Assembly (NCBI GenBank): GCA_039025855.1 | Contig: JBCCNL010000001.1 | Span: 106,988-170,987, forward strand | Source of the DNA: Planctomycetota bacterium | GTDB taxonomy: Bacteria > Planctomycetota > Phycisphaerae > Phycisphaerales > Phycisphaeraceae | Reading direction: 5' to 3' | DNA length: 64,000 nucleotides | Shown: piece by piece, positions 30,267 to 52,068 of the stretch | How positions within the stretch are numbered: the stretch's first letter is position 1 | Layout of the letters: every line of letters begins with the position of its first letter | Made by a program: the position numbers and the translations under genes | Notes under the pieces: generated by a model | Databases searched by the model: none | Told to the model about the DNA's origin: nothing | Seen by the model: only the letters and a program-made list of their open reading frames with translations

Positions 30267-30917
30267 ATGGCCGACTTCATCACAGCCTGCACGCAGAGCC
30301 CCACCAACCTCGTGTTGTCCGTGCTCCTGGTGCTCATCATGCTGTACTGGATCGTCGTCATCATCGGGGCCGTCGGCATGGACAGCCTCGACTTCGATTT
30401 CGACTTCGACGGCGATGTCGACCTCGCCCTCGACGGCCACACCAGCCTCTTCGGCGCAGGCATCGGCCTCTCGTTCCTCCGGTTCTTCCACGTCGGCACC
30501 GTGCCGCTGCTCATCCTGGTCTCCGTCTTCGTCCTCATGATGTGGGCCATCGGCGTGATCAGCTACCCGCTCATTGGCAACTGGGGCATCCTCCTCCAAC
30601 TGCTCATGCTGGTCCCCTTCGCGATCGGCGCAATCCTCCTGACCAAAGTCCTCACGCTGCCGCTTCGTGTCTTCTTCGACAAGCTCAAAGCCCAGGAAGC
30701 CGCCGAGCAAAGCGTCAACCTCATCGGCCAACGCTGCGAAGTCGTCTCCCTCACCGCCACCCACCGGCACGGGCAGGTCAAGGTCGCCACCGACGGCTCC
30801 CCCCTGCTGCTTAACGTCGTAACCCCCGACGAATCGATCACCCTGAACAAGGGCGACGAAGCCGTATTGATCTCCCAGGACGCCGACTCAAGCGTCTTCA
30901 CCATCCAGGGGTTTTAA
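30267..30917 (+). CDS. YqiJ/NfeD-like membrane protein (TM helices, acidic loop, C-terminal OB-like domain)
   Basis: MADFITACTQSPTNLVLSVLLVLIMLYWIVVIIGAVGMDSLDFDFDFDGDVDLALDGH..., then three more TM helices. The C-terminus, LIGQRCEVVSLTATHRHGQVKVATDGSPLLLNVV, resembles an NfeD-type OB fold. The gene lies immediately upstream of a flotillin gene. The track start is 30105; I prefer the ATG at 30267. Confidence 0.6.
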   Translation: MADFITACTQSPTNLVLSVLLVLIMLYWIVVIIGAVGMDSLDFDFDFDGDVDLALDGHTSLFGAGIGLSFLRFFHVGTVPLLILVSVFVLMMWAIGVISYPLIGNWGILLQLLMLVPFAIGAILLTKVLTLPLRVFFDKLKAQEAAEQSVNLIGQRCEVVSLTATHRHGQVKVATDGSPLLLNVVTPDESITLNKGDEAVLISQDADSSVFTIQGF

Positions 30918-30941
30918 ACCCCCGCTCCGGAGCACACTGCC

Positions 30942-33059
30942 ATGCTGCAACTCCTACCAACCCTCGGCCTCGCCACGCAGACGATGTTCGTCCTCGTTGT
31001 GGCCGGCATCGTCGGCTTCATCCTCGTCGTCGCGATCGTCGCCACCGTCGCCAAGTTCTACGTCAAGGTCGAGCCCGGGACCGCACTGGTCCGCCGCGGC
31101 CAGGGCGGCGGCCAGGTGTCCTTCAACGGCAAGCTGGTCATCCCCATCGCCCACCGCGCCGACATCATGGACATCTCCGTCCGGCGTATCGAGATCTACC
31201 GGCACGGCTCAGAGGGCCTGATCTGTAAAGACAACGTCCGCGCCGACATCAAGGTCGCCTTCTTCGTCCGCGTCAACAACGTCGACAAAGACGTCCTCCA
31301 GGTCGCCGACTCCATCGGCGTCAAGCGTGCGTCCCAGCTCGACGCCCTCGTCGAGCTCTTCGACGCCAAGTTCTCCGAAGCCCTGAAAACCGTCGGTAAG
31401 AAGTTCGACTTCACCGAGCTCTACACCGAACGCGAACGCTTCAAAGACGCCATCCTCGAACACCTCGGCACCGACCTCAACGGCTACGTCCTAGACGACG
31501 CCGCGATCGACTACCTCGAACAGACCGAACTCGGCAAGCTCGACCCCAAGAACATCCTCGACGCCGAGGGCATCAAGAAGATCACCGACCTCACGGCACG
31601 CGAAGCGATCCTTGCCAACGACATCTCCCGCGAGAAAGAAAAGACGATCACCAAGCAGGACGTCGAGGCCCGCGAGGCGATCCTCGAGCTCGAGCGCCAG
31701 CAGGCCGAGGCCGAGGCCAAGCAGGCCCGCGAGATCGCCACCGTCCAGGCCCGCGAGCAGGCCGAGTCCCAGAAAGTCGAAGAGGAGGAGCGGTACAAGT
31801 CGGAGAAGGCCCGCATCGCAACCGAAGAAGAGCTCGGTATCGCCGAAGAAAACAAGCTGCGGCAGATCCTCGTCGCCCAGCGGGCCAAGGAACGCACCGA
31901 CGCGGTCGAGACCGAGCGTGTCCAGCGTGAGCAGGGCCTCGAGATGACCGAACGCGAGCGCGTCGTGGAACTGGCCCGGATCGAGAAGGAGACCGCCCTT
32001 GAGGTCGAACGCAAGAAGATCCAGGACGTCATCCGCGAACGCGTGGTGGTCGAGCGGGCGGTGGTCGAGGAAGAGCAGAAGATCAAGGACACCGAAGAGA
32101 TCATGACTGCCGAGCGGGCCAAGAGCGTGCAGGTCACCACGGCCACGGCACAGGCGGAAGAAGAGAAGATCAAGGAAGTGAAGAAGGCCGAGGCCGCGAA
32201 GCTGGCGAGCCAGTTCGAGGCCGACGAGATCCTGATCGAGGCCGAGGCCAAGCGGGCCGCGGCTGAGAAGGAAGCGCTGGCCAAGATGAAGCTGGCCGAG
32301 GCCCGTCAGGCCGAAGCCGCCGCGGACGGCCTCGCCGAGGCCGAGGTCATGGACGCCAAGGCCGGGGCCGTTGAGAAGTACGGCACCGCCGAGGCCGAGG
32401 TCGTCCAACGCAAGCTCGAAGCCGAGGCCAAGGGCGACTTCGCCAAGGCCGAGGCCATCAAGGCCAAGGGCAGCGCCGAGGCCGACGTCATGCAGGCCAA
32501 GTACGCCGCCGAGGCCGACGGTGTCGCCGGCAAGGCCGAGGCCATGAAGAAGCTCGACGGTGTCGGCAAAGAACACGAAGAGTTCAAGCTCAACCTCGAC
32601 AAACAGCTCCAGGTCGAGCTCAAGCAGATCGACATCCACAAGGACATCGCGGCCGAACAGGCCAAGGTGCTCGGCGAAGCGCTCAAGTCCGCCAACATCG
32701 ACATCGTCGGCGGCGAGTCCGAGTTCTTCGACACCATCATCCACGCGATCACCAAGGGCAAACAGGTCGACCGGCTCGTCGACAACTCCGACCACCTCGC
32801 CCGGCTGTCCGACTCGCTCCTGTCCAGCAACGGCGACGGCACCACCCTCGCCGACCGTATCGGCGACTTCGTCTCCCGCTCCGGTATCGACAGCGACGAC
32901 GTCAAGAACCTCTCGATCGCCGCGCTCATCGGCAAGATGATCGCCGACTCCAGCGACCAGGGCGTCGTCAACGAGCTCAAGAACCTGCTGAGCCTGTCCA
33001 AAGCCGCCGGGTATGCCGACCAGAAACTCGCCAGCCTCGGCGTCAAGGCCCGCGCCTGA
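30942..33059 (+). CDS. Flotillin-like SPFH/Band-7 protein (YqiK-like) with long Glu/Ala-rich coiled coil
   Basis: N-terminal TM helix, then an SPFH pattern: KFYVKVEPGTALVRRGQGGGQVSFNGKLVIPIAHRADIMDISVRRIEIYRHGSEGLICKDNVRADIKVAFFVRV. The EA-rich flotillin-type coiled coil spans about 31.6-32.55 kb. Confidence 0.85.
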   Translation: MLQLLPTLGLATQTMFVLVVAGIVGFILVVAIVATVAKFYVKVEPGTALVRRGQGGGQVSFNGKLVIPIAHRADIMDISVRRIEIYRHGSEGLICKDNVRADIKVAFFVRVNNVDKDVLQVADSIGVKRASQLDALVELFDAKFSEALKTVGKKFDFTELYTERERFKDAILEHLGTDLNGYVLDDAAIDYLEQTELGKLDPKNILDAEGIKKITDLTAREAILANDISREKEKTITKQDVEAREAILELERQQAEAEAKQAREIATVQAREQAESQKVEEEERYKSEKARIATEEELGIAEENKLRQILVAQRAKERTDAVETERVQREQGLEMTERERVVELARIEKETALEVERKKIQDVIRERVVVERAVVEEEQKIKDTEEIMTAERAKSVQVTTATAQAEEEKIKEVKKAEAAKLASQFEADEILIEAEAKRAAAEKEALAKMKLAEARQAEAAADGLAEAEVMDAKAGAVEKYGTAEAEVVQRKLEAEAKGDFAKAEAIKAKGSAEADVMQAKYAAEADGVAGKAEAMKKLDGVGKEHEEFKLNLDKQLQVELKQIDIHKDIAAEQAKVLGEALKSANIDIVGGESEFFDTIIHAITKGKQVDRLVDNSDHLARLSDSLLSSNGDGTTLADRIGDFVSRSGIDSDDVKNLSIAALIGKMIADSSDQGVVNELKNLLSLSKAAGYADQKLASLGVKARA

Positions 33060-33114
33060 CCCGGCCGTTCTTCACGCATCCGCTGAGCTGCACCCGCCGT
33101 GCCCAGAGTAATCG

Positions 33115-36100
33115 ATGGCTGAAACTCCAGAAGCCACATCCGAGGCCCTGCCGGAGGACCCCACCCCGTCCCAGGGTCCGAGCCACGACCAGATCGACCA
33201 GGGCGCCTACGAGGTCATCCGACGCCGGCTCGACACGCACGGCCGGGACCTCCGCACCCGCCTCGATCAGCTCAACGCCCGCCGCAAAGAAGTCTTCGGG
33301 TCCATCGACTTCAAGCTGATCGACAACGAGCGGATCACCACGGGCAACAACTGCGTCCCCCGCGACATCGCCGCCGTCGGCGACCGCTTCCTGATGGGCT
33401 TCAACGTCCACTTCGGGCTCAAATCCCACGTCGAGCTCGACGACGTCTTCGCGATCTACCGGTTCGACGGCAGCACCTTCCACGCCGACGACCTTTCGCT
33501 CCTCGATAACGAAGACTTCGCCAAGGACTTCACCGACCTGTTCCGTTTTTACAAGAACGCCAAGTTCGCCAAGTTCTTCCGCGAAGGCCCGCACGTCTAT
33601 ATGAAGTTCCACGTCGGGCGCGACGTCGATGACTTCAAGGCCTTCAAGTGGGCCATCGAGGGCGAGTCCCTCCGCTACATGGGCAACCGCTCCGACCACG
33701 AGGTCCGCTACCCCGAGCAACACGACTTCACCTGGACCCGCGCGACCCGCGAGATGCAGACCCAGGGCGCGTTCCCGCACTACTCGATCGAAGACATCGT
33801 CTTCGTCGAAGCGACAGGTGGCGACTTCACCATCAAGGTCGAAGACAACAGCAACACCGGCGAGGGCATCTACGTCGAGCCGGTCGAGAACGCCGACCAG
33901 TCCCTCGACGACGCCGAGATCCACTACTGCGTCGTCGGGCACATCGTCCTGCTCAAGGTTCGGCCCTATCAGGAACGCAACTTCCGGTACTACATCTTCA
34001 ACGCCAAGCTCCAGCAGGTGCACCGCGAAGACAGCCTCGGCGAGGCCTGCGTCCTCCTCCCCGAGAGCCACGGCCTAGTCTTCTCCCGCGGCTACTACCT
34101 CGCCTCCGGCAAATACCAACGCTTCCCCGGCATCCCCGACGACCTCATCTTCGAACGCAAGATCTCCGCGCCCAACGGCGAAGACTTCGCCTTCCTCTTC
34201 TATCACCGCCGGCAGGGCATCTACGTCATCCTCGCCTACAACCTGATCGACCAGTCGATCGACACCCCGCTGGTCACCAACGGCTACGCATTCTTCGGCG
34301 ACGGCCGCGTCGTGTTCTTCAAGACCCCCGAAGACGCCGAACCCCAGAAACACCACGCGATCCAGGTCTGGCAGACCCCCTTCGTCGGGCCCAACTACGT
34401 CGCGCCGCCCGGCGAGGAGTCCTACCTCTCGAAGATCGGCAACCGCGACATTGTGCGTGGCATGGCCGAGTGCGTTGAGGTCCTCGAACTGCTCTCCCGC
34501 GAAGACCTCTACTCCGACCTCTACGTCGATCTGGTCAAGACCACCTCCGACCTGCTCGACGCCTACTTCTGGCTCGACCACGACGAGTCAGCCAACCTCG
34601 CCGAGCCCCTGGGCGAGATCAAGACCGCCGCCGAAGCCGCGATCGGCGAGTACGAAAAGGTCACCCGGATCCGCCGAAACACCGAGCGGCAGATCGCTGC
34701 CGTGACCCGCGAGGCCGAAGACCTGGTCAACACCAACGCGACCCGGATCTACGACAACATCCTCGTCTACGTCGAAGCCCTCGCGTCGCTCCGAGAAGTC
34801 CGGGGCAAGACCATCGCGCTCAAGGAGCTGCGTTACGCCGACCTCAAGCACATCGACGAACTCGAAGAGCGGGTCAAGGACCAGACCGCGTCACTGTCGC
34901 AGCGCTGCGTGGACTTCCTGCTCGACGAGAAGTCGCTCACGCCCTACCAGGCCGCCGCCGAGGAGCACGACGCAAAGATCGACAGCCTGACCAAGGCGAC
35001 CGACGCGAAGGAGCTCGCCGAGCTGGTCCAGAAGAGCGCCGACGAGCTCGAGATGCTGATCGAGATCGTCGGCAACCTCCGCATCGAAGACACGACCCAC
35101 CGCACCGAGATCGTCGACAACATCTCAGCGATCTTCGGCCAGCTCAACGCCACCCGCACCCGCCTCCGCAACAAGCAGCAGGAGCTCGGCCGGGCCGAGG
35201 GCGTCTCCGAGTTCAACTCCCAGCTCAAGCTGCTGAACCAGTCTGTCGTCAACTACCTCGACCTGTCCGACGACCCGGAGAAGACCGAGCAGTACCTCAC
35301 GAAGGTGATGGTGCAGATCGAAGAGCTCGAGGGCCGGTTCGCCGAGTTCGACGAATTCGTGATCCAGCTCACCGAGAAGCGGGACGAGGTGTACACCGCG
35401 TTCGAGAACCGCAAGCTCCAGCTGGTCGAGAAGCGGAACAAGCGGGCCGACGCACTCGGCCAAGCGGCGGGCCGCATCCTCAGCAGCATCAAGTCCCGGG
35501 TCGACGGGATGGAGCAGATCAACGCGATCAACAGCTACTTCGCCAGCGACCTGATGATCGACAAGGTCCGCGACATCTGCGAACAGCTGGCCGAGCTCGA
35601 CGACACGGTCCGGGTCGACGACATCCAGTCCCGGCTCAAGGCGATCCGCGAGGACGCTGTCCGCCAGCTCAAGGACCGCCAGGACCTCCAGGCCGACGGC
35701 CGAAACACCATCCGCTTCGGGCGACACGTCTTCTCGGTCAACAACCAGGCCGTCGACCTCACCACGATCACCCGCGGCGGCGAGATGAAGCTGCACCTAA
35801 CCGGCACGCAGTTCTTCGAAGCCATCGAAGACCAGCAGCTGCTGGAAACACAAGACGTCTGGTCGCAGGAGGTCGTCTCGGAAGACACCACGGTCTACCG
35901 CGCCGAGTACCTCGCCTACCTCATGCACGAGCAGCTCACACGCGGCGAACCCGCCGAGCTGCAGGCCTTGCTAAAGGAGACCGACGACGACAGCGACCCG
36001 ATCCTCGACGCGGTGCGGTCCTTCATGGGGCCACGTTACAGCGAGGGCTACACCAAGGGCGTCCACGACGCCGACGCCGCCGTCCTCCTGCGGGCCCTGC

Positions 36101-38661
36101 TCGAGATGCACGGCTCTGTCGGCCTGCTCCGCTACCGCAGCGCCGCCCGGGCCATGGCCGGCTACTGGTGGGCCACGCTCGAAGACCGCCGGCTCCGCGA
36201 ACGCCTCACCCATCAGCTCGCCGGCTTCGGCACCGTCGGCGACGTCTTCGCCTCCGCCACCCAGCAACGCGCCTACATCGACGAGCTGTCCCAACACCTC
36301 CACCGCTTCGCCGAAGGCCTCGACCTTTTCGACGCATCGCTCTCATCAGAAGCGGGCGAGTACCTCTTCTATGAGCTGACCGAACCCAAAGACGGGCTCG
36401 TGGTCAGCCCCGAAGCGGCCGAGCTGTTCGACGCCTTCAACAACCACCTCCGCGGCAACCGCTCGCTGAAAAAGTTCCGCGACTCGATCGAAGCCCTCAA
36501 CGACGCCTGGCTCGCCCGCTTCGGCCTCATCCGCGACTGGGCCCACGCCTTCCTCAGCGAGAGCGACGACTTCCCGTCCGACATCTACCGCCACTACGCC
36601 GACGAGTTGGCCCTGCTCCTGCTGCACGGCAAGCCCCCGACCGACCGCATCCACACCGCGAGCGTCCGCCGTGAGCTCGACGGGCTCATCGGCTCACACG
36701 CCGTGATCGATCAGGGCCAATACAGCCTGGACTACAACGAGTTCCTCGCCCGCCTCCGCCACTTTGCCGGCCACACCGTCCCCCGCTTCGAGGCCTACAC
36801 CCACCTGAAACAACAGCTGCTTGATGCTGCCCGCGACGAGATGCGGCTGGACGAGTTCAAGCCCAAGGTCCTCACGTCCTTCGTCCGCAACCAGCTCATC
36901 GACAAGGTCTTCCTCCCACTGATCGGCGACAACCTCGCCAAGCAGATGGGCACCGCCGGGACGGACACCCGCACCGACCGCATGGGCCTGCTCCTGCTCA
37001 TCTCCCCGCCCGGCTACGGCAAGACCACCCTCATGGAGTACATCGCCAACCGCCTCGGCGTCATCTTCATGAAGATCAACGGCCCCGCGATCGGCCACTC
37101 CGTCACCTCCATCGACCCCGCCGAGGCCACCAACGCCGCCGCCCGCGAAGAGCTCGAAAAACTCAACCTCGCCTTCGAGATGGGCGACAACGTCGTGATC
37201 TACGTCGACGACATCCAGCACACCCACCCCGAGTTCCTGCAGAAGTTCATCAGCCTGTGTGACGCCCAGCGGCGCATCGAGGGCGTGTACAAGGGCAAGA
37301 CGCGGACCTACGACTTCCGCGGGCGGAAGGTCGCCGTGGTCATGGCGGGCAACCCGTACACCGAGTCGGGCGAGCGGTTCGCGATCCCCGACATGCTCGC
37401 CAACCGGGCCGACACCTACAACCTCGGCGACATCATCGGCGACCACGCCGAGGCCTTCAAGATGTCGTACCTCGAGAACTGCCTCACCTCAAACCCCGCG
37501 CTCAACGCCCTCGCGTCCCGCAGCCAGAAAGACGTCTATGGCGTGATCAAGATCGCGGAGACCGACAGCCGCGACGGCGTCGAGTTCGAGGGCAACTACG
37601 GCCGGGACGAGCTCGACGAAATGGTCAACGTGATGAAGAAGCTCATCACCGTCCGCGACGTCATCCTGAAGGTCAACCTGCAGTACATCGCCTCGGCCGG
37701 GCAGGAAGACGCCTACCGCACCGAACCCCCCTTCCAACTCCAGGGCTCGTACCGGAACATGAACCGCATCGCCGAGCGGGTGGTCCCCGTGATGAACGAC
37801 GCGGAACTGCAAACGCTCATCTCCTCGAGCTACGAGCAGGACGCGCAGACCCTGACAACCGGTGCCGAGGCCAACCTGCTCAAGCTCCGCGAGATGTTGG
37901 GCTGGATCACCGATGAGGAGGCCGAGCGTTGGGACGACATCAAGCGGACATTTGTCCGCAACAACTCGGTCAACGCGCTAGGCGGTGACGACAAGACGGC
38001 CGCGGTGCTGACGCAGATGGCCGGCCTCAATCAGGGCCTCGGCGACATCGGCAGCGCACTGTCGACCGGCCTCGATGCTTTGAAAGATGCGGATGCATCA
38101 ACGGATGAGGCGGAACCGATCGCGATCGATCTCGCCCCGCTCGCCGAGCAGATGGCGTCGTTCGCCCAGGGGCTCACGGGTATCCGCGAAGCCATGGCGA
38201 CTGTCGCCGAACGCGCCGCGGCGCCAGTCCCACAAGCACCCAAGCCCGTACCGCAGAACGGCCCCGTCGAAGCACGTTTCGACCAGGGCACGCTCGACGC
38301 GATCCAGGCCCTCACCCAGCAGATGGCCGAGCAGGCCCGGGCCGCGCCGCACTCGCCCGCTATCAACGGCGAAGTACCCGTCTCGAACCGCCCCACCGAC
38401 GAACCGGACGACCCCCCGCACGAGATCCGCGTGATCAACAAGATCCCCGCGACGTTCCTCTACGTGATGAAGGAGCAGTTCAAGCTGATGCAGGCCTGGA
38501 TGGAGCCGCTGACCCGGATCACCGCCGACCAGGACGACCAACTCAAGCAGATGCGGGGCTCCATCCAGCAGATCGTCTCGCGGTACGACGACATGATCCA
38601 ACGGCTCGAGAAGAAGCGGGCGTCCGCCGGAGACGAGATCGATGACGACGCCGATGCTTAG
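33115..38661 (+). CDS. 1,848-aa protein: N-terminal beta-rich domain, long coiled coil, MoxR/AAA_5-type AAA+ ATPase core, helical C-terminal region
   Basis: Walker A LLLISPPGYGKTTLMEY (about 37006-37029). Walker B VVIYVDDIQH. The MoxR-like segment is VAVVMAGNPYTESGERFAIPDMLANRADTYNLGD. Heptad-rich sequence runs about 34.6-35.7 kb. Clean codon bias throughout. Confidence 0.85.
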   Translation: MAETPEATSEALPEDPTPSQGPSHDQIDQGAYEVIRRRLDTHGRDLRTRLDQLNARRKEVFGSIDFKLIDNERITTGNNCVPRDIAAVGDRFLMGFNVHFGLKSHVELDDVFAIYRFDGSTFHADDLSLLDNEDFAKDFTDLFRFYKNAKFAKFFREGPHVYMKFHVGRDVDDFKAFKWAIEGESLRYMGNRSDHEVRYPEQHDFTWTRATREMQTQGAFPHYSIEDIVFVEATGGDFTIKVEDNSNTGEGIYVEPVENADQSLDDAEIHYCVVGHIVLLKVRPYQERNFRYYIFNAKLQQVHREDSLGEACVLLPESHGLVFSRGYYLASGKYQRFPGIPDDLIFERKISAPNGEDFAFLFYHRRQGIYVILAYNLIDQSIDTPLVTNGYAFFGDGRVVFFKTPEDAEPQKHHAIQVWQTPFVGPNYVAPPGEESYLSKIGNRDIVRGMAECVEVLELLSREDLYSDLYVDLVKTTSDLLDAYFWLDHDESANLAEPLGEIKTAAEAAIGEYEKVTRIRRNTERQIAAVTREAEDLVNTNATRIYDNILVYVEALASLREVRGKTIALKELRYADLKHIDELEERVKDQTASLSQRCVDFLLDEKSLTPYQAAAEEHDAKIDSLTKATDAKELAELVQKSADELEMLIEIVGNLRIEDTTHRTEIVDNISAIFGQLNATRTRLRNKQQELGRAEGVSEFNSQLKLLNQSVVNYLDLSDDPEKTEQYLTKVMVQIEELEGRFAEFDEFVIQLTEKRDEVYTAFENRKLQLVEKRNKRADALGQAAGRILSSIKSRVDGMEQINAINSYFASDLMIDKVRDICEQLAELDDTVRVDDIQSRLKAIREDAVRQLKDRQDLQADGRNTIRFGRHVFSVNNQAVDLTTITRGGEMKLHLTGTQFFEAIEDQQLLETQDVWSQEVVSEDTTVYRAEYLAYLMHEQLTRGEPAELQALLKETDDDSDPILDAVRSFMGPRYSEGYTKGVHDADAAVLLRALLEMHGSVGLLRYRSAARAMAGYWWATLEDRRLRERLTHQLAGFGTVGDVFASATQQRAYIDELSQHLHRFAEGLDLFDASLSSEAGEYLFYELTEPKDGLVVSPEAAELFDAFNNHLRGNRSLKKFRDSIEALNDAWLARFGLIRDWAHAFLSESDDFPSDIYRHYADELALLLLHGKPPTDRIHTASVRRELDGLIGSHAVIDQGQYSLDYNEFLARLRHFAGHTVPRFEAYTHLKQQLLDAARDEMRLDEFKPKVLTSFVRNQLIDKVFLPLIGDNLAKQMGTAGTDTRTDRMGLLLLISPPGYGKTTLMEYIANRLGVIFMKINGPAIGHSVTSIDPAEATNAAAREELEKLNLAFEMGDNVVIYVDDIQHTHPEFLQKFISLCDAQRRIEGVYKGKTRTYDFRGRKVAVVMAGNPYTESGERFAIPDMLANRADTYNLGDIIGDHAEAFKMSYLENCLTSNPALNALASRSQKDVYGVIKIAETDSRDGVEFEGNYGRDELDEMVNVMKKLITVRDVILKVNLQYIASAGQEDAYRTEPPFQLQGSYRNMNRIAERVVPVMNDAELQTLISSSYEQDAQTLTTGAEANLLKLREMLGWITDEEAERWDDIKRTFVRNNSVNALGGDDKTAAVLTQMAGLNQGLGDIGSALSTGLDALKDADASTDEAEPIAIDLAPLAEQMASFAQGLTGIREAMATVAERAAAPVPQAPKPVPQNGPVEARFDQGTLDAIQALTQQMAEQARAAPHSPAINGEVPVSNRPTDEPDDPPHEIRVINKIPATFLYVMKEQFKLMQAWMEPLTRITADQDDQLKQMRGSIQQIVSRYDDMIQRLEKKRASAGDEIDDDADA

Positions 38662-38771
38662 GCCCACCGCTGCCCGCGGGGCTGTCGGCCTCGTGCGTCC
38701 GTGCCCTGCGAGCCGATATAGAATGCGTCCGCAAAACACCCTGCGGTTGCCTTGTTGATAGGAGCTCGAAC

Positions 38772-39593
38772 ATGTTCAAAGCCATCGGCCGATACTTCCG
38801 TGCACTGGGTTACCTCGTCACCGGCCGTATCGACGCCGCCCGCAGCGCCCTGTCCACCAGCCCCCACGTGGTCAACGCGACCTACGACCAGATCATCGAC
38901 GACAAGAAGAAGTCGATCCAGCAATACAAAGACGCCATCGCCCGGCTGATCGTGCAGCACGAGGGCAAGATGTCCAAGATCAAGGACGAGAGCGACTCGC
39001 TCAACCGCCTCGAACAGATGAAGGAAGGCGCCGCCGCCAAGGCCCGCTCCGTGGTGGCCGAGATGAAGGCCACCGGCGCGACGCTCGAGCAGATCAAGGC
39101 CGGCGAGGACTACCAGAAGTGCATGCTCGCCTACCAGGACTTCTCCTCGAAGATCGAAGAGAAGACCCCGCGGATCGCTGAGCTCGAATCCGATGTGAAG
39201 GAGATGGACGCGACGATCTCGGGGCACAAGCTGCAGCTCACCGAGATGCTGCGGGAGATCGAAAACCTCCGCGGCGAGCAGGCCGAGGCGGTCGCCGAGA
39301 TCATCACCGCCAAGGAGACCGCCGAGCTGAACGACATGCTCTCGGGCATCAGCAAGGACCGCACGTCGCGTGAGCTGGCCGACATGCGTCAGCTCCGCGA
39401 GGAGATGAAGGCCAAGGCCAAGGTCTCCAAGGAGCTGGCCGGCACCGACACGAAGGTGCAGGAGGACGAGTTCGTCCGGTATGCCCAGGAGAGCAAGACC
39501 TCCGATGAGTTCGACGCGTTGATCGGGCTGGCTGAAGAAGCGGACAACGCGACCCCCGACAACCCAGAGCGCGAGCCCCGGCTGCCGGAGTAG
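38772..39593 (+). CDS. PspA/IM30-family (ESCRT-III-like) protein
   Basis: N-terminal amphipathic helix MFKAIGRYFRALGYLV followed by about 230 aa of coiled coil organised like PspA (DQIIDDKKKSIQQYKDAIARLIVQHEGKMSKIK...LQLTEMLREIENLRGEQAEAVAEIITAKE). An AGGAG Shine-Dalgarno-like sequence lies 8 nt upstream of the ATG. Confidence 0.7.
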   Translation: MFKAIGRYFRALGYLVTGRIDAARSALSTSPHVVNATYDQIIDDKKKSIQQYKDAIARLIVQHEGKMSKIKDESDSLNRLEQMKEGAAAKARSVVAEMKATGATLEQIKAGEDYQKCMLAYQDFSSKIEEKTPRIAELESDVKEMDATISGHKLQLTEMLREIENLRGEQAEAVAEIITAKETAELNDMLSGISKDRTSRELADMRQLREEMKAKAKVSKELAGTDTKVQEDEFVRYAQESKTSDEFDALIGLAEEADNATPDNPEREPRLPE

Positions 39594-39648
39594 ACCACCA
39601 CTGGTCCAACTCCAGCGGGTGACGCGTGGTGCCTTTGTCCGGTCGTCG

Positions 39649-41436
39649 ATGAATACTCCCCCGCCACAACACGCCTTCTTCAGCGACCTCGCCCGCATGC
39701 TCAACGCCGGGCAGTCGCGCAGTGTCATGCTGACCGGCGAGGTCCACGACCTGTTCTACCTTGAGGCCGCCGACCGCTACGTCCCGCTGGTCCCCTACCT
39801 CTGCCGGCGATGCTCGGTCGAGGGCGTCGTCCCCCTGGTCTACGAGCTCAACGGCCCGATCCGCTGCACCAACGCCGGCGACCGCAGAACCCTCAAAGAA
39901 GCATGGGTCCGCTGGAAGACCGGCCAATCCCTCGACCAGCTCATCCTCCAATCGCTCAACGACGAGTCGGCCCGCCAGCGCCGCGAGTCCCTCGAAGAAC
40001 AGTTCGACCGACTCACCGCCGAGGCCGCCGGCCGACCCACCGCCGCCCTCGAGATGCTTCGGCAACTCACGCTCTGCTCCCGCGCACAAGCGGCACTCGG
40101 CGGCAAGCGGTTCCGGCTGCTCATCCTGGTCGAGGCCGCCGATATGCTCCTCCCCGCGGCCGACGGCGACATCACTCGGCTCAGCGCCAGCGACCGCCAG
40201 CGCGTCGCCATCTGCCAAGACTGGTTCAGCGATCCCGCCTTCATGGAGGGCGACGACAGCGTGGTACTCCTCGCCGAGTCCCGCAGCGCCATCCACCCCC
40301 GCGTCACCCGCCTGCCCCAGATGCTCACCGTCGAGGTCCCTGCCCCCGACGAGGCCCGGCGTGCCTTCTACATCGAACGCTTCACCCGCGACCGCCCGGT
40401 CAAAATCGACATGGGCACCGACGGCCTCGCCCGCCTCTCCGCCGGGCTTTCGCTGCACGCGTTGCGTCAGCTCCTGGTCGCCTCCGCCCACACCGGCACA
40501 TCCATCACCCACCACGCGGTCATCGACCTCGTCGAGCACCACATCACCAGCGCCCTCGGCGAGGGCGTCGTCGAGTTCAGCAAACCCTCGCACACCCTCG
40601 ACGATGTCGTGGGTCACCGCCGGCTGCGCGCGTTCCTCAACGACGAGCTGATCCCCCGCATCAAGTCGACCGGCGAAGACGCCCTGCCCGGCGCCGCGAT
40701 CGCCGGCCCAATCGGCTCGGGCAAGACCTTCGTCTTCGAGGCCGTCGCGGGCGGGCTCGGCCTCCCCGTCCTCGTGCTCAAGAACATCCGCAGCCAATAC
40801 TTCGGGCAGACCGACGTCATCTTCGAGAAGCTCCGACGCGTCCTCGAAGCGCTCGGCAAGGTCATCCTGTTTGTCGACGAGGCCGACACCCAGTTCGGCG
40901 GCGTCGGCGGCGACGCCCACCCCACCGAACGCCGGCTCACCGGCAAAATCCAGGCTTTGATGAGCGACCCCAAGCTCCGCGGCCGAGTCGTCTGGCTGCT
41001 CATGACCGCACGCATCGAACGCCTCAGCCCCGACATCCGACGCCCCGGCCGAGTGGGCGACCTCATCATCCCCGTGCTCGACCCCGCCCCGGGCAGCGAC
41101 GATCGCCGCGACTTCCTCCGCTGGGTCCTCAAGGGCGTCTTCGACCACCCCGACGACGCACTCCTCAATGAACTCGACCAGCTCACCCCCGGCTACTCCG
41201 CCGCCGCCTTCGCCGCCCTCCGCTCACTGCTCAAAGCCAAGGCCGCCGCGCAAGGCCAGCTCGACGCCGCCACCATCCGTGAGGTCGTCGCCGACGTCAT
41301 CCCCGCCGACATCGGCGACCAACGCGAACGCCAGACCCTCCAGGCCCTGCTCAACTGCACCCGCCGATCACTCCTGCCCGACCCGGACATCGACGAGTCC
41401 ACCCGCGAGGCGTGGCGGCGAGCCCTCGGCCAGTGA
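39649..41436 (+). CDS. Tandem AAA+ ATPase: degenerate N-terminal module plus classical-clade C-terminal AAA module
   Basis: C-terminal module: Walker A IAGPIGSGKTFV (about 40705-40728), Walker B VILFVDEAD (about 40861-40887), and second region of homology SPDIRRPGRVGDLIIPVLDP. The N-terminal module has a Walker-B-like FRLLILVEAADML but no GKT P-loop (VMLTGEVHD). The track start GTG is at 39619; I prefer the ATG at 39649. Confidence 0.85.
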   Translation: MNTPPPQHAFFSDLARMLNAGQSRSVMLTGEVHDLFYLEAADRYVPLVPYLCRRCSVEGVVPLVYELNGPIRCTNAGDRRTLKEAWVRWKTGQSLDQLILQSLNDESARQRRESLEEQFDRLTAEAAGRPTAALEMLRQLTLCSRAQAALGGKRFRLLILVEAADMLLPAADGDITRLSASDRQRVAICQDWFSDPAFMEGDDSVVLLAESRSAIHPRVTRLPQMLTVEVPAPDEARRAFYIERFTRDRPVKIDMGTDGLARLSAGLSLHALRQLLVASAHTGTSITHHAVIDLVEHHITSALGEGVVEFSKPSHTLDDVVGHRRLRAFLNDELIPRIKSTGEDALPGAAIAGPIGSGKTFVFEAVAGGLGLPVLVLKNIRSQYFGQTDVIFEKLRRVLEALGKVILFVDEADTQFGGVGGDAHPTERRLTGKIQALMSDPKLRGRVVWLLMTARIERLSPDIRRPGRVGDLIIPVLDPAPGSDDRRDFLRWVLKGVFDHPDDALLNELDQLTPGYSAAAFAALRSLLKAKAAAQGQLDAATIREVVADVIPADIGDQRERQTLQALLNCTRRSLLPDPDIDESTREAWRRALGQ

Positions 41437-41545
41437 TCACGACCGGTTCAATCCCTCAACCGCACTTCCGCAGCGCACCGGCCACCACCCCACCGCCGGC
41501 GACAAGTCTGCCATGATGTAGCGTCCTCTCCTCAGGACTCTTCCC

Positions 41546-42712
41546 ATGAAAATCACCGATGTCAAAGTCTGGCTCGTCCGCGGCGTCAAATACAACTGGA
41601 CCCTCCTCAAGGTCTACACCGACACCGGACACACCGGCGTCGGCGAAGCCACCAACTGGCCCGGCTCACCCATCATCGAGGCCGCCGCTAAGCACGTCGG
41701 GCAGCGCGTCATCGGGCTCGACCCCATGCGCACCGACTTCATCTGGACCAAGCTCTACCGCGACCTCAACTGGATCGGGCCCTACGGCGCCAGCCTCTGC
41801 GCCATCTCCGGCCTCGACATGGCCCTGCTCGACCTCAAGGGCAAAGTCCTCGGCACCCCCTGCTACCAACTCCTCGGCGGTGCCTACCGCACCGAGCTCC
41901 TGCTCTACGCCAACTACTGGTTCGATCGCGGCGAACACACCCCCGAGGACTACGCCAAGCAGGCCCAGGCCGTGGTCGACGCCGGCTTCACCGGGCTCAA
42001 GTTCGACCCCTTCGCCCACACCAACTACCTCTACGGCGACCACCTCTCCGACAACCTCACCCTCACCCCCGCACAACAAGACCTCGCCTACAACCTCACC
42101 GCCGCCGTCCGCGAAACCGTCGGCCCCGACTTCGAGATGATGATCGAGACCCACGCCATGCTCAACGGTGACATCGCCGTCAAGATGGCCGAACGCCTCG
42201 GGCCCCTCGGCGTCACCTGGTACGAAGAACCCGCCGGCCCCGAGAGCGCCGAGACCCTCGCCGCCCTCCGAAGGCGCCTGCCCAGCAATATCCCCATCAC
42301 CGTCGGCGAACGCCACTACACCCGCCACGCCTTCCGACCCATCTTCGAGAAGCACGTCTGCGATGTCGTCATGCCCGACGTCACCCGCTGCGGCGGTCCC
42401 TCCGAACTCAAGCGCATCGCCACCATGGCTGAGGCCTACAACGTCCTCATCGCTCCGCACAACCCCAACGGCCCGCTCTGCACCCTCGCCAGCGCCCACG
42501 TCTGCGCGTCGATCCCCAACTTCTTCCGCTGCGAGTTCATGTTCATGGACGTCCCGTGGCGCGACACCGTCATCGACCACCCCCTCGACGTCCGCGACGG
42601 CAAGCTCCACCTCTCCGATCGCCCGGGCCTCGGCGTCGACCTCGTCGAAGACGAGATGGAAAAACACCCCGGCGTCCGCGACGTCAGCGAGATCCACAAC
42701 TTCTACGTCTGA
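41546..42712 (+). CDS. Enolase-superfamily enzyme (mandelate racemase/muconate lactonizing family; sugar-acid dehydratase or cycloisomerase-like)
   Basis: MKITDVKVWLV...LLKVYTDTGHTGVGEAT...ISGLDMALLDLKGKVLGTPCYQLLGG...MIETHA...WYEEP... Confidence 0.85.
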   Translation: MKITDVKVWLVRGVKYNWTLLKVYTDTGHTGVGEATNWPGSPIIEAAAKHVGQRVIGLDPMRTDFIWTKLYRDLNWIGPYGASLCAISGLDMALLDLKGKVLGTPCYQLLGGAYRTELLLYANYWFDRGEHTPEDYAKQAQAVVDAGFTGLKFDPFAHTNYLYGDHLSDNLTLTPAQQDLAYNLTAAVRETVGPDFEMMIETHAMLNGDIAVKMAERLGPLGVTWYEEPAGPESAETLAALRRRLPSNIPITVGERHYTRHAFRPIFEKHVCDVVMPDVTRCGGPSELKRIATMAEAYNVLIAPHNPNGPLCTLASAHVCASIPNFFRCEFMFMDVPWRDTVIDHPLDVRDGKLHLSDRPGLGVDLVEDEMEKHPGVRDVSEIHNFYV

Positions 42713-42715
42713 CCC

Positions 42716-44794
42716 TCAGAAACTCAACCGCTCCGCGTGCTCTTCATCGCGCACCAACACCTGCCGCCGCTGGTGCGTCGCCATGCGTCCCGCCCGACGC
42801 TGCGCCGCCCGGAACAGCCACCCCAACACCCACCCCGGTAGACGCACCGGCACCGACTTCAACAGCCGCCGACGCACCGGCGTGAACTTCACCAGCAGCG
42901 GATCGTCCAGGCTCGTGATCACCGTCGCCGTCCCCGGCTCGCCCTGCCGTGCGCTGCGACCTTCAAGCTGCCGATCTACCCGGCGTGACTCGTGACGATC
43001 CGTCGCAATCACCGCCAGCCCGCCCCGCTCGACCACGCCCTCAGGCAGCTTGATGTCCGTCCCCCGACCCGCCATGTTCGTCGCCACCGTCACCCGCCCC
43101 AGCTGCCCCGCCTCCGCGACAATCGCCGCCTCCTGCTCGTGCAGGTGCGCGTTTAGCACCGCATGCGGAACGCCCGCGCCCGTCAGCCGAACGCTCAGGC
43201 TCTGGCTGTCATCCACACTCCGCGTGCCCACCAGCACGGGCCGACCCGCAGCGTGCATTTCCCTCGTCAGCTCTGTCACCGCGTCCCACTTGGCATCCAA
43301 CGTCGGCAGCGGCCGAACAGTCTGGGTCTCGCGGCGGCATACCCGGTGCGTCGGGATCCGCACCGTCTGCATCCGATAGGTCCGCCAAAGCTCCGCCCGT
43401 TCTCCCCACGCGGTCCCGGTCATCCCGCTCAGCCGGCGGTACAGCCGGAAGAACCGCTGGAAGCTGATCGCCGCCAGCGTGTGGTTCAGGTCGCTGACCT
43501 CCAGGCCCTCCTTCGACTCGACCGCCTGGTGCAGCCCCGCCTGCCACGTGCGGTCGGGCATCAGCCGGCCCGTGCTCTCGTCCACAATCACCACCTTGCC
43601 ATCCTGCACCACGTACTGGTCGTCGCGCAGATACAGGTACTGCGCCACCAACGCCTGATACACCCGCTCTTCCAGGCGACGCACCGGGCTACGGTCCGCA
43701 TCGCCTCTCGAACCCACCAACCGCTTGATGTGTTGCCGACCCGCCTGCGTCAGGCGCAGGTCCCGGTGCCGCCGATCCAGCCGGAAGTCGCGGTCGGGCT
43801 GCAGCCGCGCCGCCAACGCCGTGGCGTCCCGATACGTGAACTCCCGGGCGTCGCCGCCCGGTGCCGTATCCGCCTTCGGCCCCGAAATAATCAACGGCGT
43901 CGTCGACTCATCAAGCAAGATCGAGTCGGCCTCGTCAATGATCGCCGCCTCACCGCGGAAGAACCGGCCCTGCGACCGCGTCGACTCACCCGTCAGGTTC
44001 CGGGCCAGAACCGAAGCGAGCGGCATCGACGCACGATCGGTCTGCGCCTGTTCCTGCAGCAGGTCACGCAGGTAGTCCGCGGCCGCCTCCTTGTGCGTCG
44101 TGTACGTGATGTCGGCCGCATACGCGCTGCCCCGATCGTGAGGCGGCGTGCCACCCGTGATGTAAGCCACGCGCAGCCCCGCGCCGCCAAACAACGGCTT
44201 GGCCCACTGGGCGTCCCGTTTAGCCAGGTAGTCGTTCACGGTGAAGACGTGACAACCCCGGCCGTGCCACCCGACCAGGCAGGCGGCCAGCGCCGCCACC
44301 AGCGTCTTGCCCTCGCCCGTCGCCATCTCCGTCATCCGGCCATCCAGCAACGCCGCGGCCGCCGCGACCTGCACGCGGTACGCATTGAGCCCCAGGGTCC
44401 GCCGCGCCGCCTCCCGGATCAGCGCGAGCGCTTCAACCCGCTGCTCGACCGTGACCGACCCTCGCCGAAACACCGCACGCTGCTCCGCCAGCCGCCCGCT
44501 CAACGCATCGATGTGCAACTCCCTGCACACCGCCTCCTGCGCGAGCACGCGGTCCGCCAAACGCAGATAACGACGCACCGAACACCGCCCCGCAACCAGG
44601 TGCGACGCGACCCACTCGTACACCGCATCGGCATGCCGACGCGGCTTCGCCGGCTGCCGGTTATGCGATCGGCTCCGCCACGCCTCCCCATCACGCCACA
44701 GCTTCGCCAGCGCCGGCGTCTGCAACTCACCCGGCCGCGCTACGCCCACGGGCTGGTTCGGGTCAGACGGGAACAGCGTGGTCAGGCTCGACAT
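42716..44794 (-). CDS. SecA-like DEAD-motor ATPase lacking the canonical SecA C-terminal scaffold, wing and CTL domains
   Basis: Colinear with the SecA NBD1-PPXD-NBD2 region: TEMATGEGKTLVAALAA (about 44298-44326), HVFTVNDYLAKRDAQW, AIIDEADSILLDESTTPLIISGP, NMAGRGTDIKL, GGLAVIATDRHESRRVDRQLEGRSARQGEPG. Only about 50 aa follow NBD2. The ATG at 44794 shares 1 nt with the upstream stop (TGATG). The track start is 44881. Confidence 0.8.
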   Translation of the reverse strand: MSSLTTLFPSDPNQPVGVARPGELQTPALAKLWRDGEAWRSRSHNRQPAKPRRHADAVYEWVASHLVAGRCSVRRYLRLADRVLAQEAVCRELHIDALSGRLAEQRAVFRRGSVTVEQRVEALALIREAARRTLGLNAYRVQVAAAAALLDGRMTEMATGEGKTLVAALAACLVGWHGRGCHVFTVNDYLAKRDAQWAKPLFGGAGLRVAYITGGTPPHDRGSAYAADITYTTHKEAAADYLRDLLQEQAQTDRASMPLASVLARNLTGESTRSQGRFFRGEAAIIDEADSILLDESTTPLIISGPKADTAPGGDAREFTYRDATALAARLQPDRDFRLDRRHRDLRLTQAGRQHIKRLVGSRGDADRSPVRRLEERVYQALVAQYLYLRDDQYVVQDGKVVIVDESTGRLMPDRTWQAGLHQAVESKEGLEVSDLNHTLAAISFQRFFRLYRRLSGMTGTAWGERAELWRTYRMQTVRIPTHRVCRRETQTVRPLPTLDAKWDAVTELTREMHAAGRPVLVGTRSVDDSQSLSVRLTGAGVPHAVLNAHLHEQEAAIVAEAGQLGRVTVATNMAGRGTDIKLPEGVVERGGLAVIATDRHESRRVDRQLEGRSARQGEPGTATVITSLDDPLLVKFTPVRRRLLKSVPVRLPGWVLGWLFRAAQRRAGRMATHQRRQVLVRDEEHAERLSF

Positions 44795-47031: not shown

Positions 47032-47057
47032 TGCAGAACCTCAATCGTCAATCGGCG

Positions 47058-49073
47058 TCAGAGCCAGAGCTGCATCCGCACCCAGTTCACCGCGTCCCGC
47101 GTCCACAACCAGAGGTGGCTCGACTCGCCCGCATCCAGCCGGGCCGCGCCCGTCATCCCCGGCCGAAGCCAGACCGGCTGACGGTCCAGCTCCACCTCCG
47201 CCGCGAACACGTTCCGCCCCTCGTGCACCTTCGCCTGAGGCTCGATCGACCGCACCGTGAAGCCCACCCGCTGATCCGGGTAACTCGTCGTCGCCAGCTC
47301 GCCCCGCATCCCCAGCGTCACCTCTCCCGCCCGGTCCTCCGGGATATAAAGCTCCGCCCGCAGCGCCTCCACGGGCGCGACCTCAAAGAGCGTGTCGCCC
47401 TCCGTCACCGCCTTCCCGATCTCACGCTTCAGGTCGCCCGCCATCACCATCCCGCCCAGCGACGACCGCAGTGCCGCCATCTCGATCTGCCGTTCAATCA
47501 AGCGGCGCTTCGCCGCCGTCGCCTCCGCCTCCGCCATCGACACCTGAACGCCCGACATGTCCGACTCCCGCCGCGCCGCCTCCGCCTGCTTCCGCTGCGC
47601 CGTCTCCTGCGCCCAGAGCTCCGCCGCCTGCAACCGGAGCTCCGCCGTATCCAGCTCCGCCAACACCGTCGCCCCCGCCTGCACCGCATCGCCCGGCCCA
47701 ACATGCACCGACTTCAGATACCCCGCGAACGGCGCCGTCACCAGCTGCCGCTGCGTCGCCTCAATCACAAAGCTCGACTCCACATGGTCCGTCCCCTTGC
47801 CCAGCGTCAACCACAGCACCAACGCCAAGAGCCCGACCGCTGCGACCTTCGCCCAGGTGTACTGCGTGCCCAGCGCTTTGCCGAGCACCCGTGTGCTCCC
47901 GTCCTTGAGCCGACCCCCCACCCAACGGTCACGCTGCCGCAGCGGCACCAGCAACGGCGTCGCCAACTCACCAATCAACCGCAACCGCGTCAACCGCTGC
48001 GCCGTCTCCGCGGCGTCCTTCGGCAGCTCGTTCCACTCCAGCGTCAGCACCGCCACCACCCCGCCCTCCCGTCCCTGCTCCGACTCGCCGCTCACCTCGC
48101 CCTTCGCCCCGCCCACGTGACGCAGCGGAAGCGACACCGCACACGCCGAGCCGTGCTGCTTCGTCAACGCCTGATGGTCTCGGCTCACCACCGGCACCTC
48201 GGGCGGCGCGGGCCACACCACCTCGATGTCCTGATCCAGACACTCGTGCATCGCCGACTCCAGGTCCTGCACCAGCTTCATCCGCCGGTTCAGCCGCTCG
48301 GTCCGGCTCATCGCGATCAGCTTGAGCGCCTCCCGCTGCGGCTCCACCCAACCCAGGCTCACCCGCTCCGCCCCGTGCCGCGACGCCAGCTCGTTGCACA
48401 ACCCCATGGCCGCCTCACGGAACCGCCGACAACGCCCCAGCGCCGCCAAGACATCCACCGATTCCGTCAGCCGATCGATCCCGCCCTGCTTCTGGTGCAG
48501 CTGCGCCCGCGCGTCATACGCCCCGAGCAACCCAAGCGTCAGCTCCACCTGCTGCGCCGCCCGATCCACCTCGCCCCGCGACACGCCCTGAAGCCCCAGC
48601 GCCACCATGAACCGTCCTTCCCCGCCATCCAACCCGACCGACTGCGGCAGGCCCAACAACACCAAGAACTGCTCACTCGCCGACTCCGGCGGCGCAGTCG
48701 TTGCGGTCGCATTCTCAGCCGGGACGGACTGACGGATCCCCATCACCACCGGCGTCGACCGCGCAAACACCCGCTCCGCCTGCTCCGCCGCGAACCGCAC
48801 CCAGGGCGGTGGCAACCGATCCGGGTGCGGGTTGTAGTCCGCCACCACCGCCGGCCCGGACTGCGGCATAAACCGGATCACCACCCCGTGGTCCGCGCCC
48901 GTCAGCCGGCCCTGAAGCGTCACCAACCGCTGCAGGAACTCCGGAGCCGGGCCATCGAACCGCGCCAGCATCTCCACGACCGTCGGCCGCTTCGCGTCGG
49001 CCGCCGGCTGCTGCCCCAAGCCCCCACCCGACAGCCCCGCACCACCCGAAGAAGATCGACCTGATTCATCCAT
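47058..49073 (-). CDS. HlyD-family adaptor with large cytoplasmic N-terminal region (two GAF-like modules), one TM helix and a periplasmic MFP domain
   Basis: TM helix KVAAVGLLALVLWLTLG. The MFP part reads LVTAPFAGYLKSVHVGPGDAVQAGATVLAELDTAELRLQAAELWAQE...GMTGAARLDAG. Calling the N-terminal ~330 aa GAF-like is a pattern-level, low-certainty call. Confidence 0.65.
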   Translation of the reverse strand: MDESGRSSSGGAGLSGGGLGQQPAADAKRPTVVEMLARFDGPAPEFLQRLVTLQGRLTGADHGVVIRFMPQSGPAVVADYNPHPDRLPPPWVRFAAEQAERVFARSTPVVMGIRQSVPAENATATTAPPESASEQFLVLLGLPQSVGLDGGEGRFMVALGLQGVSRGEVDRAAQQVELTLGLLGAYDARAQLHQKQGGIDRLTESVDVLAALGRCRRFREAAMGLCNELASRHGAERVSLGWVEPQREALKLIAMSRTERLNRRMKLVQDLESAMHECLDQDIEVVWPAPPEVPVVSRDHQALTKQHGSACAVSLPLRHVGGAKGEVSGESEQGREGGVVAVLTLEWNELPKDAAETAQRLTRLRLIGELATPLLVPLRQRDRWVGGRLKDGSTRVLGKALGTQYTWAKVAAVGLLALVLWLTLGKGTDHVESSFVIEATQRQLVTAPFAGYLKSVHVGPGDAVQAGATVLAELDTAELRLQAAELWAQETAQRKQAEAARRESDMSGVQVSMAEAEATAAKRRLIERQIEMAALRSSLGGMVMAGDLKREIGKAVTEGDTLFEVAPVEALRAELYIPEDRAGEVTLGMRGELATTSYPDQRVGFTVRSIEPQAKVHEGRNVFAAEVELDRQPVWLRPGMTGAARLDAGESSHLWLWTRDAVNWVRMQLWL

Positions 49074-49085
49074 CGCCGATCCTTT

Positions 49086-52053: not shown

Positions 52054-52068
52054 TCACCGAGACCTCTC

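Follow-up and report, generated by a model that had tools for sequence, protein, structure and literature searches.

The window analysed here is a 64,000-nucleotide (nt) stretch of contig JBCCNL010000001.1 from a bacterium of the phylum Planctomycetota, with a G+C content of about 66%; all positions below are those of the whole stretch. Two neighbouring genes on its + strand are the subject of this work. The first encodes a putative PspA/IM30-like protein of the ESCRT-III superfamily (38772..39593, 273 amino acids (aa), with AGGAG 8 nt upstream of the ATG), and the second encodes an AAA+ ATPase with two modules in tandem ('AAA2'; 39619..41436). The ATPase can be read as 605 aa from GTG 39619 or as 595 aa from ATG 39649, and the second start is the probable one because NCBI annotates an identical protein, from a Planctomycetota metagenome-assembled genome (MAG), from M11 with a length of 595 aa. 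Depending on the start used, 25-55 nt separate the stop codon of the PspA-like gene from the ATPase gene. The original prediction for this locus, made from the sequence alone, described a PspA-like gene followed by an ATPase with an inactive first module, and it favoured a mechanical relationship between the two products over a transcriptional one. Both open reading frames (ORFs) indeed lay on the + strand at the coordinates given here, and all motifs quoted in that prediction were present in the 605-aa ORF, the numbering of which is used for the ATPase throughout. The coordinates of the ATPase motifs were checked by translation.

The PspA-like protein and its C-terminal tail

The window protein alone matched the Pfam family PF04012 only at E 0.0077 (16.3 bits), which is below the gathering cut-off of 33.9, and a PDB search with this single sequence returned nothing meaningful. 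The family consensus matched PF04012 at E 2.7e-7 (30.9 bits, cut-off 33.9), and the match was colinear over profile positions 2-206 of 220. Because the HR1 coiled coil of a coronavirus spike scored similarly in the PDB search with the family profile, the reversed consensus was run against PF04012 as a control, and it gave no match. With a profile of 43 sequences, the members of which were 28-49% identical to the window protein, Vipp1/PspA structures were the top four PDB matches (E 5e-7). The segments aligned to Vipp1 were colinear (query 39-97 to Vipp1 30-88 and query 132-249 to Vipp1 98-212), and the ELAGxD region lay inside the match to the Vipp1/PspA structures. Moreover, PF04012 was the sole Pfam family matched repeatedly by individual alignment members (11/26 and 12/43 at E<0.01, best E 3.4e-7).

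A total of 978 homologues of the PspA-like protein were found, some of them labelled 'PspA/IM30 family protein' or 'phage shock protein A' by NCBI/JGI. When 1.84 billion cluster representatives were searched exhaustively with a profile, just 587 relatives were recovered; the family is compact and does not merge with canonical PspA at the HMMER level. The AF2 model of the protein was a long helical hairpin with low-confidence termini (predicted local distance difference test score (pLDDT) 77.6, above 90 in the core). Vipp1 ranked first when this model was searched with Foldseek, with about 247 columns aligned, yet only at E 2.9e-3. An hhalign comparison of a closer-relative alignment (A2) with a single sequence of E. 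coli PspA reached a probability of only 0.3%; with a single-sequence template this comparison has low power, and the negative is not decisive. The structural support for the PspA/IM30 assignment thus appears weaker than the support from the family profile. At the family level, the similarity to PspA/Vipp1 is significant, colinear and near full-length, and it exceeds what coiled-coil composition would give. Our reading is that the protein, which lies under Pfam's own threshold, belongs to the PspA/IM30 branch within the ESCRT-III superfamily and has diverged from it; the label 'PspA-like', weak for the single sequence, is convincing for the family.

The two ends of the protein were distinctive. 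Its first 16 residues (MFKAIGRYFRALGYLV, 38772..38819, + strand) would form an amphipathic, basic helix with a helical hydrophobic moment of 0.68, the highest in the protein. The net charge of aa 1-27 was +4, and the N-terminal segment was conserved across the family. These features are as expected of the membrane-binding helix alpha-0, for which this segment is a candidate.

The C-terminal tail was acidic (39507..39590, + strand) and carried two short motifs, EFDxLIGL (aa 246-253) and a terminal [KR]-L-P-E (aa 270-273), with a variable linker between them. The last ~30 residues had a net charge of -8 and were of low confidence or disordered in the AF2 model. Although the 43-sequence alignment held no invariant column, the most conserved positions family-wide sat in the tail, where E246, F247, L271, P272 and E273 were conserved at 86-95% (P272 95%, E273 91%). 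All 56 of the 56 ATPase-linked copies carried [LIVM]P[ED] inside their last 6 aa. This acidic Φ-P-E tail is a candidate docking tail and, from its conservation, the most likely handle for the ATPase. Compared by eye with the consensus patterns, it fitted neither MIM1 nor MIM2, and the MIM-like motif suggested in the original prediction was not found there.

The two AAA modules of the ATPase

The N-terminal module (aa ~19-322, 39673..40584, + strand) was a degenerate AAA module lacking the Walker A lysine (GQSRSVMLTGEVHD). VMLTGEVHD occupied aa 36-44, at the P-loop, and the Walker-B-like LILVEAAD lay within LLILVEAADM at aa 167-176. The P-loop region of the module read GQSRSV..G..HD, and the Lys was absent at this position in the aligned family members as well. 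The AAA ancestry of the module was supported by hhalign, which aligned aa 166-314 with the C-terminal module from the Walker-B strand through the lid (probability 90%, E 1.7e-6), and by a confident AF2 model of aa 11-322 (pLDDT 88.7, predicted template modelling score 0.84) that describes a module of ~310 residues. Its fold matches included Pex1, Pex6, NSF D2 and inactive FtsHi subunits. A word-indexed homologue search with the profile of this module returned only close planctomycete relatives. An invariant ELNGPIR loop (39844-39864) followed strand 2, at the expected site of pore loop 1, and a helical insertion of ~70 residues (~39874-40080) stood ahead of the Walker-B-like IEAAD; either of these could be a substrate-docking element. 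Because the AAA fold starts at ~aa 19, there is no room for an MIT or Cdc48-N domain, and neither an MIT domain nor any other recognisable substrate-recognition domain was detected in the ATPase by Pfam or fold comparison. The predicted inactivity of the first module was therefore borne out by the hhalign match, the fold and the missing P-loop Lys, and the suggested MIT-like domain was not.

The C-terminal module (aa ~348-545, 40660..41253, + strand) was intact, as predicted. It was supported by the Pfam AAA match (E 1.3e-14) and the PDB alignment to VAT, and it was the only part of the ATPase detected by Pfam (aa 361-480). On the + strand, it carried Walker A GPIGSGKT (aa 363-370, 40705-40728), pore loop 1 SQYFGQTD (40792-40815), Walker B VDEAD (aa 419-423, 40873-40887), the arginine-finger motif RRPGR (aa 474-478, 41038-41052) and the lid motif GYSAAAF (41191-41211). 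All 233 members of the ATPase family had kept both Walker A (GxIGxGKT) and Walker B ([VI]DEAD), and 231 of them had kept the aromatic pore loop (RSQ-[WY][FY]G-Q). RRPGR and the classical lid GYSAAAF were conserved in an alignment of 18 members.

The best PDB matches of the C-terminal module were VAT, AFG2, Cdc48 and p97, with the highest scores to D1 (E 6e-23 and weaker). Among the NCBIfam models, CDC48 matched 18 of the 18 members searched, PAN 18, CdvC 16 and FtsH 12; these were the only models matched, and none was an NtrC/PspF model. Score rankings together with diagnostic motifs place the module in the classical AAA clade. The ATPase, which the original prediction tentatively likened to a Vps4- or Cdc48-style partner, belonged to neither family; the CdvC model and the Cdc48 model TIGR01243 scored far under their cut-offs.

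One position departed from the classical pattern. At the sensor-1 position (aa 463-465, 41005-41013, + strand), the usual TNR was replaced by TAR, a change of Asn to Ala seen in 233/233 family members. In other classical AAA proteins, replacement of the sensor-1 Asn strongly reduces hydrolysis, so that the altered ATPases may be slow enzymes, enzymes that use another residue, or switches. One alternative to mechanical remodelling follows this line: the ATPase would be a switch or assembly chaperone that keeps the PspA-like protein soluble, or loads it onto the membrane, by nucleotide-dependent binding and without processive threading, much as PspF sequesters PspA in E. coli, minus the transcriptional output. 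The family-wide TAR, which suggests slow hydrolysis, is consistent with such a switch, and so is the chaperone-like framing of PspA-associated AAA+ proteins in passages of Ravi et al. 2024 (mSystems; PMC11237479). However, strong selection has kept the Walker B Glu, the aromatic pore loop and the two arginine fingers, which is hard to square with a pure binding switch, and we consider this alternative unlikely.

Transcriptional control in the manner of PspF is another reading of a PspA-family gene coupled to an AAA+ gene. The AAA+ protein would activate sigma54 promoters, and the PspA-like protein would inhibit it. Its sole support comes from the likeness to the psp system of E. coli, in which a PspA-family protein is also genetically coupled to an AAA+ protein. 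PspF belongs to the NtrC-type enhancer-binding proteins and carries a Fis-type helix-turn-helix (HTH) domain. In contrast, the window ATPase contained neither Sigma54_activat nor HTH domains according to Pfam and NCBIfam (the latter also over the 18 members), and no GAFTGA-type signature occurred in any reading frame of the window. Every significant match was to a classical-clade AAA protein. Clustering with NtrC/PspF, which would have spoken against the original prediction, was looked for, and the best scores went to the D1 modules of Cdc48/VAT/AFG2. Domain content refutes this reading, and we give it practically no credence. The preference for a mechanical over a transcriptional relationship accordingly stood in its negative half, with a PspF-like role excluded; for the positive half, a mechanical partnership is the best reading and is inferred.

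Linkage of the two genes and their genomic context

Relatives of the ATPase turned up in 547 places in a pattern-based scan that took one genome per species, and the best 80 of these, plus one cultured strain, formed the set of loci analysed. The best 80 loci were nearly all from Planctomycetota, with a few MAGs labelled otherwise; two of them came from named Alienimonas isolates, and the ATPase was separately found in Planctomycetaceae strain SH139. The closest relatives of the window locus were Phycisphaeraceae MAGs. A PspA-like gene was present in 56 loci of this set, on the same strand as the ATPase gene in all 56 and directly upstream of it in 34. Among the 42 loci with full flanks, it lay within 10 kb of the ATPase gene in 36 and was not nearby in the other six.

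In most relatives, the pair stood amid genes that encode an ABC ATPase, a permease, a substrate-binding protein, and PBP+OmpA, VWA and transmembrane + coiled-coil proteins. In the window and its closest Phycisphaeraceae relatives, these transporter-module genes were absent, and the pair followed a flotillin/DUF3686 module. Of the arguments from context, the retention of the pair through a change of the neighbouring module speaks best for a direct functional link. The contrary reading, that the two genes are neighbours without a direct functional link and share only the regulation of unrelated envelope-stress genes, could draw on the six ATPase loci without a PspA-like gene and on two of the three independently picked PspA-like loci without the ATPase (see below). 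The uniform orientation of 56/56 linked copies, 34 of them adjacent, the retention of the pair across module swaps, and the report of the same dyad in Clostridium and Candidatus Handelsmanbacteria in passages of PMC11237479 argue against this reading, and we regard it as very unlikely.

The tail of the PspA-like protein was also compared with the presence of the ATPase. Four distant relatives with a variant tail had sufficient context, and none of them (0/4) lay near a member of the window's ATPase family. At L082 and L087 the module contained no AAA gene at all. At L085 and L089, AAA proteins of unrelated types were encoded within the same OmpA/VWA/ABC module (L085:2627-3793, 388 aa; L089:12046-13686, 546 aa), and hhalign matched them only weakly to the ATPase family profile. 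These four loci are in line with a tail that is specific to the window's ATPase family. Different AAA partners may have been recruited more than once alongside PspA-like relatives without the Φ-P-E tail. Of three tail-bearing PspA-like genes picked without regard to the ATPase, one (L091) had the ATPase within 10 kb, and the other two (L090 and L092) had no AAA gene within 10 kb, although the ATPase could be encoded elsewhere in those genomes. The correlation between tail and ATPase is suggestive in a sample too small and mixed to count as a test, and we offer it as a hypothesis only.

Two of these loci had features of their own. At L091:10001-13315, the tandem ATPase was divided between two ORFs, one of 319 aa and one of 311 aa that carries the AAA domain; a split gene, a frameshift or a fault in the assembly could account for this. 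A ParE-type toxin-antitoxin insertion lay between the PspA-like gene and the split ATPase. At L090:8187-10831 and L091:8024-10825, the tail-bearing PspA-like gene followed genes for a GHMP kinase and an FtsW/RodA/SpoVE protein and a 155-174-aa ORF. This arrangement appears to be a third genomic context, beside cell-wall synthesis genes.

The transporter module bears on a further alternative. The PspA-like protein might be an adaptor, that is, a membrane anchor or damage sensor that recruits the AAA+ unfoldase to the membrane, where it would extract or unfold other substrates in the manner of quality control by Cdc48, Msp1 or FtsH; in other species, such substrates might come from the linked transporter/OmpA/VWA module. 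Several observations fit this proposal: the best sequence matches were to unfoldases of the Cdc48/VAT/AFG2 type and not to Vps4, the intact pore loop would suit any threading substrate, the pair stood among envelope and transport genes in most relatives, and some PspA-like relatives sat in the same transporter module without any ATPase. Nevertheless, the PspA-like gene was the only gene that stayed with the ATPase across differing modules, and no protease or degradation partner was found by Pfam-type scans among the five genes of the putative operon described below. We judge the adaptor role rather unlikely, if worth keeping in mind.

In the window, the pair closes a run of five same-strand genes, namely YqiJ-like, flotillin-like, DUF3686 giant, PspA-like and tandem AAA+. 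The first gene (30267..30917, + strand; start uncertain, the listed ORF beginning at 30105) encodes a multi-pass membrane protein of the YqiJ/YuaF (NfeD-like) type, with a Pfam YqiJ_N match at E 6e-4 and 20.4 bits, slightly below the cut-off of 23. Its place ahead of the flotillin gene matches an operon in Table S3 of PMC11237479. The second gene (30942..33059, + strand) encodes a 705-aa flotillin-like SPFH/Band-7 protein with a long coiled coil, which was 70% identical to its counterpart in the related locus L013. The Band_7 match (E 1.7e-10) was seen only when the N-terminal 260 aa (aa 1-260) were searched alone; the full-length ORF gave no Pfam or PDB match, and interference of the long coiled coil with the HMMER filters may be the cause. 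The third gene (33115..38661, + strand) encodes a giant protein of 1848 aa with an N-terminal DUF3686 domain (E 3e-179), DUF7902 (E 1e-24), a coiled coil and a single AAA+ P-loop module at ~aa 1293, the Pfam matches also including AAA, AAA_22 and AAA_5. Of the 80 related loci, only the 12 closest had the giant gene upstream of the dyad. A literature search on DUF3686 found nothing.

The run is flanked upstream by an AMP-ligase (AMP-binding enzyme) gene on the opposite strand, and it is also flanked by an enolase-superfamily gene. A scan of 29800-42000 found no promoter-like sites, and terminator-like sites were no commoner there than in shuffled sequences. Because these scans were uninformative, the limits of the operon and the co-transcription of the five genes are deduced from gene spacing and strand alone, and we treat the run as a putative operon.

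An anti-phage defence module built on AAA+ ATPases was also considered, since PADLOC returned weak matches to IetA and mad8. These matches ran through the generic P-loop region and were limited to the generic AAA core (E 1e-7 to 3e-3). Moreover, no nuclease, protease or other effector was present, and the genes form a conserved chromosomal operon across the phylum, beside housekeeping-type membrane genes. The defence reading was dropped because PADLOC gave generic P-loop matches only, and we hold it to be extremely improbable.

Elsewhere in the window, three genes in a row on the - strand (42716-49073) encode a short SecA paralogue (721 aa), a membrane protein with a PqqD domain and an M50 peptidase, and an HlyD-type membrane-fusion protein, and they look like a dedicated cluster for peptide processing or export. 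Another run on the - strand (22133-30086) includes an MMPL-type transporter and an AMP-ligase; judged by eye from the sequence, two neighbouring ORFs in it are acyltransferase-like and one is glycosyltransferase-like, and the run may be a cluster for lipid synthesis or export. A 1343-aa surface protein with cadherin-like, Calx-beta, PA14 and GSDH domains is encoded at 9855-13886 (+ strand). GC skew was strongly negative, down to -0.49, over 2001-14000 and 40001-58000.

Known systems and the proposed remodelling of a PspA-like polymer

The pairing has been described before. By comparative genomics, PMC11237479 reports a 'PspA + inactive-classical-AAA + classical-AAA' dyad, with examples in Clostridium (AEY64320.1/AEY64321.1) and in an operon of Candidatus Handelsmanbacteria (OGG56892.1), and proposes ATP-dependent membrane remodelling for it, likened to Snf7/Vps4. 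According to these passages, then, neither the pairing nor the mechanical inference is new. No experimental study of the dyad was found in the literature. As in the published dyad, a dead N-terminal classical AAA module precedes an active one in the window, and a PspA-family gene adjoins on the same strand. The related planctomycete loci also share with it the operon of PBP+OmpA, permease, ABC ATPase and transmembrane + coiled-coil (Snf7-like) genes. In contrast, the window pair is joined to the flotillin/YqiJ/DUF3686 module and to none of the transporter-module genes, and PspA precedes AAA in it, in the reverse of the order seen in the Clostridium example. The likeness to the published examples, which also include CKH37208.1, is one of architecture and gene context.

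The same paper also describes an operon of YqiJ, Band-7/flotillin and a beta-propeller-coiled-coil-AAA protein together with CesT-PspA. The order YqiJ-like, Band-7/flotillin, giant AAA+ is the same in the window, and the giant DUF3686 protein is the counterpart of the 'beta-propeller + coiled-coil + AAA-ATPase' named in those passages. However, none of the window's five ORFs matched CesT, so the CesT/Tir-PspA pairing is not reproduced, and the PspA partner in the window belongs to the divergent tail-bearing family and comes with its own tandem AAA+ ATPase. The window therefore unites two published modules, since PMC11237479 describes both the dyad and the flotillin operon. The present analysis adds this composite flotillin/DUF3686 context, the conservation of the Φ-P-E tail and the sensor-1 substitution shared by the whole family; neither the motif nor the substitution was found in the consulted parts of that paper and its supplement.

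Resemblance to ESCRT-III/Vps4 (CdvB/CdvC) lies in an ESCRT-III-superfamily gene beside a classical-clade AAA+ gene with a threading pore loop, in a flexible C-terminal tail with short conserved motifs, and in the proposed ATP-driven extraction of subunits. The differences are that the window ATPase has no MIT domain and has two AAA cassettes instead of one, that it scored 18.9 bits against a cut-off of 650 for the CdvC model NF041006, that the tail motifs, judged by eye, fit neither MIM1 nor MIM2, and that the polymer protein belongs to the PspA/Vipp1 branch and not to the Snf7 branch.

With the double rings of Pex1/Pex6, NSF and Cdc48/p97/VAT, the window ATPase shares the tandem classical AAA architecture, its best matches being the D1 modules of VAT, AFG2, Cdc48 and p97. 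Pex1/Pex6 have an inactive D1, NSF has a non-hydrolysing D2, and Cdc48/p97/VAT are active in both rings. Unlike the last group, the window ATPase has no double-psi-barrel or other N domain, and its D1 lacks the P-loop Lys; identity is low, and it reached 61.9 bits against a cut-off of 802.65 for TIGR01243. It also differs from the double-ring unfoldases in the helical insertion of its dead module at the pore-loop site and in the replaced sensor-1 Asn of its active module.

From the domain identities, motifs and conserved linkage described above, we infer a mechanism that includes polymerisation, membrane binding, tail recognition and threading. The PspA-like protein would bind the cytoplasmic face of the membrane via its N-terminal amphipathic helix and polymerise there. 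The ATPase would be recruited through the acidic Φ-P-E tail, with its degenerate first module serving in assembly or substrate docking, and its second module would hydrolyse ATP and pull the PspA-like protein by means of the aromatic pore loop, so that the polymer is disassembled, recycled or reshaped. The job would be like that of Vps4 on ESCRT-III, and the architecture, with a dead D1, an active D2 and no MIT domain, is nearer to Pex1/Pex6 or to the double rings of NSF/Cdc48. Because the pair is probably co-transcribed with the YqiJ-like, flotillin-like and DUF3686 genes, the remodelling is probably tied to a flotillin-type membrane microdomain.

That the two genes form a working pair in which the ATPase mechanically remodels a PspA-like polymer is the reading we favour, with moderate confidence. 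Several of the results given above weigh against it: the sub-threshold PF04012 score of the single sequence, the negative comparison with E. coli PspA, the sensor-1 substitution, the lack of a recognisable substrate-recognition domain in the ATPase, the ATPase loci without a PspA-like gene nearby, the tail-bearing genes at L090 and L092 without an AAA gene, and the PspA-like relatives that occur in the transporter module on their own. In its favour are the family-level PspA/IM30 homology, the identity of the ATPase, the conserved tail and pore loop, the linkage of the pair and its persistence across different modules, and the like inference in PMC11237479.

It is an open question by what means bacterial polymers of the ESCRT-III type, such as PspA and Vipp1, are dismantled or remodelled. 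According to a 2025 review (PMC7619361), a Vps4-like ATPase 'appears absent in bacteria', and recent work points instead to PspA's own weak intrinsic ATPase activity. The present loci extend the 2024 prediction by showing that the predicted pair is widespread within one phylum, without adding a new principle to it.

Planctomycetota are known for unusual internal membranes. A bolder proposal, which we put forward as distinctly improbable, is that these bacteria carry a counterpart of the ESCRT-III/Vps4 cycle of Vps4-independent origin, in which a PspA-branch polymer is recycled by its own Φ-P-E-recognising double-ring AAA+ ATPase and, in the window's lineage, is wired to a flotillin scaffold and the DUF3686 giant, driving membrane invagination, scission or repair. 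If true, such a Vps4-independent bacterial cycle would contradict the statement in PMC7619361 on the absent Vps4-like ATPase. The tail motif, the pore loop, the Walker B glutamate and the unusual sensor-1 residue provide concrete experimental handles.

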